A stretch of 64,000 nucleotides of DNA from Escherichia coli (GCF_051903065.1 NZ_CP178438.1), one strand, 5' to 3'; counted from the stretch's first letter, positions 13,226 to 63,697 are shown. Numbers and translations: made by a program. Notes: generated from the sequence alone by a model not told the origin.

Positions 13226-13406
13226 CCGCTCTCCTTATTAAGGAGCGCAACACCAGCACCTTACCCTTACACTGCCTGTCGATACTGGTTTACGTATGTT
13301 GGACCACGATGTTGCACTCCGGATCAGGGCACCACCTGCAGCACCACCCGTCCGGTAGCCAGGACTTGAAATAGGTTCGATCCGGCGCAACGTCCCAACG
13401 GTCTGG

Positions 13407-13434
13407 ATTATAAATCTCATTATCTTAATTGCAA
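13407..13434 (-). promoter_or_regulatory. Predicted sigma70 promoter for the second toxin mRNA
   Basis: Same architecture as copy 1: minus-strand -10 TATAAT (plus 13407-13412), -35 TTGCAA (13429-13434). Confidence 0.5.
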
Positions 13435-58831: not shown

Positions 58832-59055
58832 TTATGATTTCTCCTGCAGGTGTGACGCCTCCGCCCTACGTGGGGGCAAAGTTATTAAGCTGATTTACAG
58901 CCTGATTATTGTGCGTGAGGCGGCGCACATAATCCAGTATTCACAGCGATAATTATTGTAATTGCCGCTGCCTTTCATCAGCAGATGTTAAAACATCGTT
59001 ATGCAAATACGGAAGTGAAAGTTACTCACAGCACATTGAATAAACGGTATGATGA

Positions 59056-59956: not shown

Positions 59957-61936
59957 TCAGAAGCGATAATCCACTGCCATAAAGTAACGACGTCCGTCTT
60001 CGTTATAGCTGTAGTCGTCACGACTGAGATCCTTGTCGCCAAGGTTCAGCACGCCTGCGCGCAGTTTGACGTCTTTAGTCACCTGCCAGGCCGCGCCGGT
60101 ATTCCAGATGGTATAACCGCCCGGTGTTTTAGCCGTCGCGCTGTCGGCTCGTTTCTGCCCGGTATAGTGACCAGAAACATAGAATGACCAGTCTTCCAGC
60201 GCCAGCGGTTTCCAGTCCAGCGTACCGTTAGCGGTATGGAACGGCAGATCGGATAGCGGTTTGTTTTCGCCGTTGCTGACATCACGACCATCGTTGTAGG
60301 TGTAGTTGAGTGACAGTTTCCATTCATCGTTGAACGGAATTTTCAGCTCGGTTTCCACGCCCTGAATACGTGCTTTGTTAACGTTGTAGTAGCTAAATAC
60401 CGGCACACCGTTCGCTGTAAAACCAACAAAGTTTTGGTAGCCCGGTGCAGCATTGACGTCAGACGTACGGCTGATGCTGATACGATCTTTCACATCGTTA
60501 CGGAAAACGGTAACGCTGGATTCAACCCCTTCCAGCCAGCCTTCTTCACCCATGTAGTAAAGCCCCAGCTCCCAACTTTCGCTGGTTTCTGGTTTCAGAT
60601 CCGGGCTACCCACAATCTTACATGCGCCACGGCAGGAATTGCTCGTCCAGTCAGGGCTAAGTTGCAACAGAGAAGGTGCTTTAAATGCCGTCGCCCAGCC
60701 CCCTTTCACCGTTACGGTGTCGGTGGCGTTATAAACCAAGTAGGCACGCGGACTCCAGTGTTCACCGTAGGTTTCGTGATCGTCCATACGCACGCCGGTC
60801 GTCAGCGCCAGCGGCTCGAAGATCCGCCATTCATCTTCCACAAACAGCGCGTACTGGCTGGCAGACGTTTTGGAGCTGGTTCCCCCGGTCAGGTTCACCG
60901 CATCGCTAAGTTTGTCGTGACGCCATTCACCGCCAACCGTGAGAAACTGATTAATCGCCGTCAGCGGCAACGTGTATTTGCCGTCGACCGTATTGCTTTC
61001 GGAAGTTATCGGGCTGCTGTTGCCAGGGTTTTTGTTCTCGACTTTCTCACCGTAGTATTTCAGTTCGCTGGTGCCGTAATCCCAACGCCCATTATGGCTG
61101 ACGGAGTAGTTCTGGCGTTCCAGGCGGTTTTTGTCCAGCGAGTCGGAATCACGATCCTGACGGTCGAAACCGTATCCGGCAGTAAAATCGTGATTTTGAT
61201 TCGGTGTCCAGGCAAATTCGACATTGCCGTCGCGGCTGGAGAATCCTTCAATACGCGGCGTTTCTCCGGTATCGGTGGTCGTTGAGTTTTGCGGGTCATC
61301 CTTTTCACGTTTTGCCAGGCTGCCGTAAGCTTTCATTCCCAGCACACCATCAATTAATGGTCCACTGGTAAAGAACTGACCGTTATAGGTATCACCGCGA
61401 TCGCGATGTTCCTGAATGGTGGTATCGACGGTAACGGTACCCGACCATTTCTGACCGATTTTTTTGGTGATGATATTCACTACACCGCCGAGCGCATCGG
61501 AACCGTACAGCGACGACATCGGGCCACGGACCACTTCAATACGTTCGATGGAATCGACCGGGATCCAGTTCAGATCGAAATCATTGTGGCGGAAGACGGC
61601 ATTGCGGGAGTTAACGCGTTTACCGTCGACAAGAATCAGGGTGTAGCTGCTGTCCAGACCACGAATACTAACGCCCTTACGGTTATCCCCTTCGTTCGTC
61701 AGTTGTACGCCAGGCACTTCTTTGAGGACATCCTTCAGATTCTGTACCGGTTTTCGCTGCAGGTCTTCCTGGGTAATGACGCTGATACTGGCGGGTGCAT
61801 CTTTAAGGTTTTGTTCAACGGAAGATGCAGTGACAACCATCGTTTCGCCATCATCATCGACCGCTAACACAGGCCATGCACAAGAAATAGCGGACAAACA
61901 CAGCCCGACCCGTACGAAAGGGTTCAACCTAAACAT
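59957..61936 (-). CDS. cirA: TonB-dependent outer-membrane receptor for catecholate siderophores/colicin I
   Basis: Signal peptide, TonB-dependent receptor C-terminal aromatic residue (…VDYRF); synteny. Confidence 0.85.
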
Positions 61937-62105
61937 TCCATATCTCCATGAGGTAACTACGAAAATAAAATGGGTTATCGCTCACATCTTCTTCACGTCC
62001 CCTTGCGTACGGCAGCATCGCGGTGGACTTATTTGTATGCAGGTGATCATCCCAGAAAGCCGGACCAGCCTCTGATTTGTCAGCCTTTTTTGATTGCGGC
62101 GCAAC

Positions 62106-62130
62106 GATAATGCAAACGATAACAATTATC
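62106..62130. promoter_or_regulatory. Fur box upstream of cirA
   Basis: GATAATGCAAACGATAACAATTATC contains the GATAAC-N-ATTATC core of the Fur consensus. Confidence 0.55.
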
Positions 62131-62180
62131 AATCCAAATGTTAAATTTTATATCCGCATGATTTGTCAGGGAAATGGAAT

Positions 62181-62209
62181 TGAAAAAGCCCTCTCGGTTG
62201 AGAGGGCTT
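62181..62209 (-). terminator. Rho-independent terminator of lysP
   Basis: On the minus strand, stem AGCCCTCTC / GAGAGGGCT with a 4-nt loop followed by a T-run. Confidence 0.65.
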
Positions 62210-62227
62210 AGCAAGGAAGGGAGAAAC

Positions 62228-63697
62228 TTATTTCTTATCGTTCTGCGGGAACTTCATTTCGCTGTAGCGTACGAAGTGGGTTCCTTTAATCAGCTTGTAG
62301 CCGAACCAAATAATCAGGAACAGCGGGATACCAATATACGTTGCCGCTACGCCGCCCCAGTCAATGGTATCTTTCAGGAATGCTTCGTAGTTCTGGCCCA
62401 AAGTGATAATCAGACACAGAATGAATGCGAAGATCGGACCCAGTGGGAAGAAACCTGAACGGTACGGCAGATCGTTAATGTCGTGTCCCTGCAATACGTA
62501 ACCGCGACGGAAGCGATAGTGGCTAATGGCAATCCCCAGCCAGGCGATAAAACCGGTCATCCCGGAGGTGTTCAGCAGCCACAGGTATACCGTCTGGTTG
62601 CCAAACATGGAGGTCAGGAAGCACAGACCGGCAATCACCGTCGTCGCATACAGCGCATTACGCGGCACGCCACCACGCGACAGTTTAGCGAAAATGCGCG
62701 GCGCTTTACCGTCACACGCCAGGGTGTACAGCATACGAGTAGACGCATACATACCGGAGTTACCCGCTGACAGCACCGCCGTCAGAATAACTGCGTTCAT
62801 CACCGCCGCCGCAGAGAGCAGACCCGCGTGCTGGAACACCAGGGTGAACGGACTAACGCTGATGTCTTTAACATCGTTACGTAGCAGGCTTGGATCGGTG
62901 TACGGAATAATCAGGCTGATAATCAGGATCGCGAACACATAGAACAACAGGATTCGCCAGAACACCTGACGTACCGCGCGTGGAATGTTTTTCCCCGGAT
63001 CTTCGGACTCGCCTGCAGCAATACCGATCAGCTCGGTTCCCTGGAAAGAGAAGCCGACAATCATAGCTACGCCGATCATCGCCGCAAAACCACCAGCAAA
63101 CGGCGCTTCGCCGATTGTCCAGTTGCTCCAGCCCGCAGGCTGCGCGCCTTTGAAGATACCGATAATCATCAGCACGCCAACGATGATAAAGACAATAACT
63201 GTCGTGACTTTGATCAGTGAGAACCAGTATTCCGCTTCACCAAAGCCGCGAACAGAGATGTAGTTCAGCAGGAAGATAACGCCGAGGAACAACGCACTCC
63301 AGATCCAGCCCGGTGTATCCGGGAACCACCAGCTCATGACCAGCTGAGCTGCAACCAGGTCAACGGCAATAGTCACCGCCCAGTTGTACCAGTAGTTCCA
63401 GCCCAGCGCGAAGCCAAAGCCTTCTTCAACATAGTTCTGACCGTAAGTGGCAAACGAACCGGAAACCGGCATATATGCAGCCAGTTCACCGAGACTGGTC
63501 ATCAGGAAGTAAACCATCAGGCCAATCAGCATATACGAGAGCAATGCCCCGCCCGGACCTGCCTGAGAAATCGTTGCGCCAGAGGCAACAAAAAGACCTG
63601 TACCGATGGAACCGCCAATGGCAATCATCGTCAGGTGACGCGCCTTTAATTCACGGCGTAAGCCCGGCGCTTCTGTGGTTTTAGTTTCGGAAACCAT
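62228..63697 (-). CDS. lysP: Lysine-specific permease (APC family)
   Basis: Tracked ORF of 489 aa with twelve hydrophobic segments; synteny. Confidence 0.9.
   Translation of the reverse strand: MVSETKTTEAPGLRRELKARHLTMIAIGGSIGTGLFVASGATISQAGPGGALLSYMLIGLMVYFLMTSLGELAAYMPVSGSFATYGQNYVEEGFGFALGWNYWYNWAVTIAVDLVAAQLVMSWWFPDTPGWIWSALFLGVIFLLNYISVRGFGEAEYWFSLIKVTTVIVFIIVGVLMIIGIFKGAQPAGWSNWTIGEAPFAGGFAAMIGVAMIVGFSFQGTELIGIAAGESEDPGKNIPRAVRQVFWRILLFYVFAILIISLIIPYTDPSLLRNDVKDISVSPFTLVFQHAGLLSAAAVMNAVILTAVLSAGNSGMYASTRMLYTLACDGKAPRIFAKLSRGGVPRNALYATTVIAGLCFLTSMFGNQTVYLWLLNTSGMTGFIAWLGIAISHYRFRRGYVLQGHDINDLPYRSGFFPLGPIFAFILCLIITLGQNYEAFLKDTIDWGGVAATYIGIPLFLIIWFGYKLIKGTHFVRYSEMKFPQNDKK

Follow-up and report, generated by a model that had tools for sequence, protein, structure and literature searches.

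The cir control region of Escherichia coli K-12 contains two promoters, p1 and p2, and a Fur operator (Griggs & Konisky 1989; reanalysis in Chen et al. 2007, PMC2189734). The cir DNase footprint covers NC_000913 positions 2244957-2244999 and contains three overlapping predicted sites (20.7 bits); the sites are 6 bp apart, and the cluster is centred at -189 from the gene start (Chen et al. 2007, PMC2189734). Other Fur clusters in that analysis, for example those at oppA (-233), yebN (-300), and nohA (-233), are likewise over 150 bp upstream of the start codon, since their promoters lie that far out. What distinguishes cirA from oppA, yebN, and nohA is that the footprint, both transcription start sites (TSSs), and the small RNA (sRNA) sites in the leader have all been defined experimentally.

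Transcripts from p1 and p2 carry leaders of 173 and 160 nt, respectively, in K-12, as given by Guillier & Gottesman (2008, PMC2588501) with reference to Griggs et al. RyhB pairs with this 5' UTR, activates translation, and raises cirA ribosome occupancy (Wang et al. 2015, PMC4666370). Direct pairing between RyhB and cirA is also documented in Waters 2017, and papers citing Salvail et al. 2013 (EMBO J) credit that study with RyhB activation of cirA translation. As cited there, Hfq alone binds near the cirA ribosome binding site (RBS) and represses; RyhB displaces Hfq. It is already known that cirA is an unusual RyhB target, activated rather than repressed. The shiA 5' UTR, which belongs to the other RyhB-activated mRNA, resembles the cirA leader: it too is long, and RyhB pairs with it upstream of the RBS. 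The two differ in mechanism: at shiA, an RNA-only anti-antisense interaction opens a hairpin that sequesters the RBS, whereas the literature assigns cirA activation to Hfq displacement.

Two further sRNAs, OmrA and OmrB, pair with the cirA leader at -35 to -10, where compensatory mutations identify residues -19 to -10 as critical (Guillier & Gottesman 2008, PMC2588501). They need Hfq to repress cirA translation, and they also trigger decay that depends on RNase E (same source). In enterohemorrhagic E. coli (EHEC), the island-encoded sRNA Esr41 represses cirA 7.6-fold and confers resistance to colicins Ia and Ib (Waters 2017).

The literature, with experiments made on other strains, thus supplies the footprint and TSSs, the proof of pairing by compensatory mutation, and the part played by Hfq. 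Here we describe the sequence anatomy, sRNA complementarity, conservation, and start-codon position of cirA in a 64-kb stretch of E. coli DNA (the window). The locus very probably carries the textbook cirA control region: Fur over p1 and p2, followed by a long, sRNA-regulated leader.

The region is the lysP-cirA-yeiG segment of the E. coli chromosome. A 2.4-kb query from it matches 5425 of 5426 complete E. coli genomes, with 100% identity in three and 99.9% identity in O157:H7-type strains. The cirA coding sequence (59957-61936, minus strand; 659 aa) specifies the catecholate siderophore and colicin Ia-Ib receptor; RefSeq annotates this open reading frame in an identical genome as "catecholate siderophore receptor CirA," with the same start. 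The intergenic span is bounded by the lysP stop (62228) and the cirA ATG (61936). Its upstream part is occupied by the lysP intrinsic terminator (62186-62209, minus strand; a 10-bp stem and T-run found by a terminator scan), which sets the 5' bound of the cirA control region. Rfam reports a Phe_leader match over the lysP stop and terminator (62180-62239, minus strand; E = 0.072); its 25.3 bits fall well short of the gathering score, 55, and it is almost certainly a chance resemblance to the terminator hairpin.

Conservation was assessed in 80 cirA loci, drawn from one scan of species-representative genomes that extends from Escherichia to Rahnella, Erwinia, and Mixta.

The Fur operator and promoters p1 and p2

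An earlier note on this DNA had placed a Fur-like core within 62106-62130, far from the ATG. The coordinates are right: this stretch lies 170-194 bp upstream of cirA. Within it, plus-strand positions 62118-62130 read GATAACAATTATC, 182-194 bp upstream of the cirA ATG.

Taken one at a time, Fur sites in this window are not impressive. A search with the 19-bp Fur consensus, allowing at most three mismatches, finds 0 matches in the whole 64 kb; mismatch distributions and a phased-cluster statistic were used instead. The best local 19-mer matches the consensus at 14 of 19 positions (62112-62130), a score reached by about half of random 64-kb sequences, so the single cirA site is not significant alone. 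The 7-1-7 model performs better: CGATAACAATTATCA at 62117-62131 scores 12/14, and the window holds two such sites versus 0.27 expected. The phased arrangement is the most distinctive feature. Three 19-mer matches begin at 62106, 62112, and 62118, a 6-bp phase, and together score 39 (12 + 14 + 13), the top cluster in the window. This score is reached by 11 of 300 simulated 64-kb sequences, and by one of 2000 simulated sequences of intergenic size. The cluster (62106-62136) lies 170-200 bp upstream of the ATG.

The earlier note had also called this the only strong Fur-like sequence. That description holds for the intergenic region, where the next best match is 12/19, but not for the window, which has two 15/19 matches in coding sequence. 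One of these is in the lysP coding sequence (63155-63173); the other is at 13406-13424. A 14/19 match at 58948-58966 lies about 120 nt upstream of the yeiG ATG. All three are probably due to chance, because no phased cluster beats that of cirA.

The K-12 footprint extends from -208 to -166 relative to the ATG, and maps to window positions 62101-62143 once a 1-nt deletion in the leader is allowed for. This interval, the Fur operator, holds the three 6-bp-phased boxes along with the palindromic core. By alignment, then, the cluster at 62106-62136 is the footprinted cir operator. The block from 62200 down to 62103 is identical to that of K-12, and the three boxes and their distance from the ATG are alike, save for the 1-nt leader deletion. 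The one difference within the footprint is at its downstream edge: position 62102, between the p2 -10 element and the TSS, is G here and A in K-12.

A promoter scan of the minus strand finds both promoters. The p1 promoter (62116-62144) comprises a -35 element TTAACA (62144-62139), a 17-nt spacer, and a TG-extended -10 element TATCGT (62121-62116). The p2 promoter (62104-62132) comprises a -35 element TTGATA (62132-62127), a 17-nt spacer, and a -10 element TATCGT (62109-62104). Transfer of the K-12 leader lengths through the K-12 alignment, with its 1-nt indel, places the TSSs in this strain at approximately 62108 (p1, 172-nt leader) and 62095 (p2, 159-nt leader). These positions are inferred, but the -10 elements from the scan sit 7-8 nt upstream of the TSSs that the published leader lengths imply. 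Together, the published leader lengths and the scanned -10 elements put the Fur cluster over the p1 -10 element and TSS, and over the p2 -35 and -10 elements.

The cirA 5' untranslated leader accordingly spans 61937-62108 (minus strand) from p1, and begins near 62095 from p2. It differs from the K-12 leader only at 62102, 62065, and 62035, and by the 1-nt deletion beside 62035. None of these four differences touches the Fur core, the RyhB site, or the OmrA/B site; from about -101 to the ATG, this strain and K-12 agree throughout.

The premise that a Fur box belongs near the ATG is mistaken. Repression by Fur works through promoter occlusion, and the overlap with both promoters here is the ordinary geometry for it; the operator is distant from the ATG because the promoters are. 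Fur boxes track promoters, not start codons.

Might the upstream box nevertheless be inoperative, cirA being controlled instead by another promoter and Fur site near its ATG, with most of the leader an untranscribed spacer? The region is AT-rich, and contains a weak Fur-like 19-mer (12/19) at 61961-61979. That score is background, however, being reached by 77 sites in the window. The blind promoter scan reveals no further σ70-like site on the minus strand between 62104 and the cirA ATG, and the mapped elements, namely the published footprint and TSSs, are the upstream ones. Moreover, the sRNA sites at -58 to -10 were proven by compensatory mutation, so this interval must be transcribed. Finally, the upstream block of promoters and Fur boxes, TTAACAATTnAATTGATAATnnTTATCnTTTGCnTTATC, is the most conserved non-coding element across genera. 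An operative promoter and Fur site near the ATG is thus exceedingly improbable in this strain.

Comparison among the 80 loci extends the case for the promoter-linked operator. ATTGATA(A) is present upstream of cirA in 65 of them, versus about 1.8 expected. Distances between the Fur cluster and the ATG sort into groups: most genera have about -185 to -200, others -167 to -178 or -109 to -138, and two Leclercia genomes -91. Every locus in which a Fur box is recognisable has it at least about 90 nt from the ATG, with the exception of one Erwinia. (No recognisable ATTGATA was found in 14 other distant loci, from Rahnella, Cedecea, Pantoea, Mixta, and others.) In the exception, Erwinia typographi, the 230 nt upstream of cirA contain the terminator of the upstream gene and then, directly, TGTGAGC; the sole ATTGATA (ATATTGATATCA) is just 41 nt from the ATG, so that the leader of this species may be short and its Fur box promoter-proximal.

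One database entry deserves a separate remark. CACSKA010000001.1, labelled "Chryseobacterium sp. 18061," carries an Enterobacteriaceae-type cirA (81% amino acid identity) whose Fur cluster is identical to that of Pseudocitrobacter. The entry is probably mislabelled or contaminated.

The start codon and the length of CirA

The distance between operator and ATG had also raised the suspicion that the true start codon lies further upstream. In this reading the leader would be shorter, and CirA would be about 663 aa rather than 659 aa long. The figure of about 663 aa behind it is sound, since K-12 CirA does have 663 aa. The remaining evidence is all on the other side. An in-frame TGA (61982-61984, minus strand) lies 16 codons upstream of the ATG (61934-61936, minus strand), and the frame has no ATG, GTG, or TTG between this TGA and 61936; an N-terminal extension is therefore excluded. 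BLASTP alignment with K-12 CirA gives 656 identities over 663 positions, and the N-terminal 506 residues are identical. The 4-residue shortfall comes from an internal indel at residues ~507-513, where a 10-residue stretch stands against GFETGANGRRIPVF; relative to K-12, the 4-aa deletion is at window positions ~60418-60404 (minus strand), codons ~507-511. The same ATG is used in K-12 and is annotated in RefSeq. Among the 80 loci, the ATG is kept in all 80 and the Shine-Dalgarno (SD) context CTCATGGAG, with its GGAG, in 72, whereas the sequence further upstream diverges and carries indels. The probability that the annotated start is wrong is close to nil. The mature N-terminus, for its part, carries no information on the start codon, as CirA has a cleaved signal peptide, with a putative cleavage site just ahead of VDDDGE.

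The 4-residue-shorter CirA allele is common to O157:H7-type genomes (99.9-100% identity). The indel probably falls in a surface loop and, because CirA is the colicin Ia/Ib receptor, could alter recognition of that receptor.

Small RNA sites and a candidate Hfq site in the leader

The alternative suggestion in the earlier note, of a long regulatory leader that might be an sRNA target, is correct, and for RyhB, OmrA/B, and Esr41 it had already been published. The note called for a search of the leader for complementarity to iron-responsive sRNAs. Such a search recovers the RyhB site at -58 to -40.

For these comparisons, sRNA sequences were taken from the K-12 genes and the target was the leader of the window itself. 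Duplexes between full-length sRNAs and the leader were dropped, as they gave unrealistic end-to-end hybrids; local duplexes combined with opening energies were substituted. RyhB nucleotides 40-58 pair with the leader at 61976-61994 (minus strand), with a 12-bp core, GAUGUGAGCGAU, at 61988-61977. The energy is -16.8 kcal/mol including the cost of opening the mRNA, and none of 100 shuffled seeds is as good. The compensatory oligonucleotide JW5381 changes TGTG to GTAT (Wang et al. 2015, Fig. S3, PMC4666370). The TGTG that it alters corresponds to 61986-61983, inside the predicted core. The site is identical to that of K-12, as is everything from 61994-61976 through the ATG, and no sequence-level difference from the K-12 system of RyhB and Hfq control (Salvail 2013; Wang 2015, PMC4666370) was detected here.

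The RyhB core is widely shared: GTGAG occurs between -35 and -75 in 65 of the 80 loci (3.1 expected), mostly at -45 to -58, and the longer TGTGAGC is nearly invariant in the leader alignment (A2).

The OmrA/OmrB site occupies 61945-61970 (minus strand; -34 to -9), with the critical -19 to -10 residues at 61955-61946. It includes a U-rich tract (61970-61961), and overlaps the SD sequence GGAG (61944-61947, minus strand; -11 to -8), which was named as such in PMC2588501 and is invariant in alignment A2. The best predicted site for the 5' ends of OmrA and OmrB is the published one, at -34 to -9. The pairing energy is not better than that of shuffled sequences (36/100 and 40/100), and support for the OmrA/B site is therefore experimental, not computational. 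Relative to OmrA/OmrB repression of K-12 cirA (PMC2588501), no difference is seen: the -35 to -10 sequence is identical and the best duplex alike.

The stretch at 61970-61961 is U-rich and A/U-rich, while A-rich tracts occupy 62040-62027 and 62094-62085. The U-rich tract is a candidate Hfq-binding region, near the RBS as the literature on Hfq would have it.

These elements suggest the following scheme. When iron is plentiful, Fe2+-Fur on its three overlapping boxes (62106-62136) would block RNA polymerase at p1 and p2, two closely spaced σ70 promoters. Hfq near the RBS would repress cirA translation. During iron starvation, RyhB (itself Fur-repressed) would pair with 61994-61976, displace Hfq, and activate translation, so that RyhB and Fur would form a feed-forward loop on cirA. 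The EnvZ/OmpR-dependent sRNAs OmrA and OmrB would pair with -35 to -10, over the SD, leading to translational repression and RNase E decay. In EHEC, Esr41 adds further repression.

An RNA-only switch, in which RyhB frees the RBS through an anti-antisense mechanism, was considered and rejected. RNAalifold pairs the invariant GUGAG with CUCAU beside the SD. The probability of this helix is approximately 0 in the E. coli ensemble, in which the SD pairs locally with UUUCGU at -28 to -23 (p ~0.87). Both GUGAG and CUCAU are invariant and therefore offer no covariation evidence for the helix; pairing with RyhB and OmrA/B, together with the SD context, accounts for their conservation. Blocking the RyhB site in silico makes opening of the RBS 1.5 kcal/mol more costly, not less (ΔΔG +1.5). 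RNA thermodynamics alone thus fail to reproduce activation, and the mechanism rests on the published Hfq-displacement model. As modelled, the folding test is consistent with protein-mediated displacement of Hfq, not with an anti-antisense interaction.

Another candidate role for these residues concerns CRP. Expression of cir is regulated by cAMP-CRP, and TGTGA has the form of a CRP half-site. This assignment was also rejected: the sequence is at about +115 from the TSS, its second half-site is poor, and the compensatory mutations tie these bases to RyhB.

Leader modules and their variation across genera

From 5' to 3', the leader elements are arranged in the order HP1, A-rich linker, HP2, TGTGAGC, U-rich tract, ACCTCATGGAG (the OmrA/B site and SD), and ATG. 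HP1 (62041-62086, minus strand) is a 5' hairpin predicted in the minimum free energy (MFE) structure, and its sequence varies between genera. The A-rich linker (62027-62040, minus strand) precedes HP2 (61999-62026, minus strand), a hairpin directly 5' of the RyhB site whose structure is kept while its sequence changes. HP1 has been deleted in Enterobacter, Atlantibacter, Citrobacter freundii, and Escherichia sp. ESNIH1 lineages. HP2 is missing, together with the RyhB core, in Citrobacter sp. 18056 and Trabulsiella. The leader of Leclercia sp. 29361 is reduced to the RyhB core and the translation initiation region. The cirA leader, as read from the aligned loci, is long but modular, with two variable hairpin modules that are lost in some lineages.

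Covariation in HP2 was computed on the MAFFT alignment A2, which was not fitted to the structure. The HP2 score is 0.329, versus 0.08-0.19 for slid partners, and none of 500 shuffles reaches it. All nine pairs have changed on both sides, with 75 both-side cells versus 32-53. The E. coli version of HP2 is weak and 1 nt out of register.

Such features invite the idea of a cis-acting leader (riboswitch, leader-peptide attenuator, or regulatory uORF), instead of or besides one that serves as an sRNA target. Apart from the HP2 covariation, it draws on two sets of small ORFs. In the window, a 22-codon ATG ORF, MITCIQISPPRCCRTQGDVKKM, runs from 62050 to 61982 (minus strand); it shares the cirA frame, and its stop is the TGA at 61984-61982. 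In many leaders outside Escherichia, a conserved GGATGAAGCCAC is associated with tiny ORFs. The E. coli ORF was rejected as a uORF: its frame is broken by a 1-nt indel between this strain and K-12, and a conserved peptide is unlikely because the extra A of K-12 near 62036 shifts the frame. The ATG of the motif found in other genera is missing in Escherichia. No Rfam family is found in the leader at E <= 1 (61700-62400 searched); the only matches are Phe_leader, which is outside the leader, and mir-598, on the wrong strand, both at chance level and far below their gathering scores. The leader folds no more stably than shuffled sequences (z = +0.6 from p1 and +0.1 from p2), and the terminator scan finds no terminator-like hairpin within it. 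Lastly, HP1 and HP2 are each deleted in some lineages. Control in cis is very unlikely on this evidence, and the leader is best regarded as an sRNA target.

The motif in other genera merits description for itself. Leaders from Klebsiella, Raoultella, Kluyvera, Pseudocitrobacter, Citrobacter, Pluralibacter, and Trabulsiella share GGATGAAGCCA(C/A) about 20-25 nt in. The associated ORFs (in loci L010, L011, L031, L033, L036, L037, and L060, among others) are tiny and variable in length, with products beginning MKPLP or MKPIS. At the equivalent place Escherichia has GGCTGACAAATC, in which the ATG is absent (GGCTGAC). The shared GGATGAAGCCA could represent either an RNA motif or a small uORF since lost from Escherichia.

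Structures near the start of the coding region form another side observation. The potential for a CCC...GGG hairpin at 61909-61924 (cirA codons 5-10) is kept across genera, as ACCC..GGGU in Escherichia and UCCC..GGGA elsewhere; it may reflect constraint on the codons or, alternatively, structure in this part of the mRNA. The E. coli MFE fold pairs leader residues -77 to -64 (CCGUACGCAAGGG) with +14 to +27 (CCCUUUCGUACGG). The terminator scan also flags 61907-61891, in the early cirA coding region.

Might the approximately 100 nt comprising HP1, the A-rich linker, and HP2 hold an additional, undescribed regulatory element? We consider this unlikely, if less so than control in cis. HP2 and the linker, which remains A-rich and resembles ARN-type sequences, could together constitute a structured platform and Hfq distal-face site that presents the RyhB target. 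Alternatively, the two could be targeted by another sRNA or by RNase E. The leader segment from -149 to -54, which contains HP1, is dispensable for OmrA/B control (deletion delta-1; PMC2588501). If such an element were present, the lineages that independently lost HP1, or HP2 together with the RyhB site, would be ones with rewired post-transcriptional control of cirA.

The distant Fur operator and sRNA-regulated leader of cirA are real but ordinary, known since 1987-2013; the canonical arrangement is confirmed in this window, and no new biology is added. Two practical points follow for sequence annotation. A Fur box far from an ATG is reason to look for a promoter and a long UTR, not to re-annotate the start; and a discrepancy in protein length is reason to check first for internal indels. 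The way in which leader hairpins have come and gone as modules across Enterobacterales is a minor comparative point, of possible interest to sRNA specialists.

Control of cirA by Fur, RyhB, Hfq, OmrA/B, and Esr41 is a well-studied model of layered transcriptional and sRNA regulation. Besides being a catecholate-siderophore receptor, CirA is the gate through which colicins Ia and Ib enter, and siderophore-conjugated antibiotics such as cefiderocol use the same route. The level of CirA expression therefore sets both iron uptake and susceptibility.
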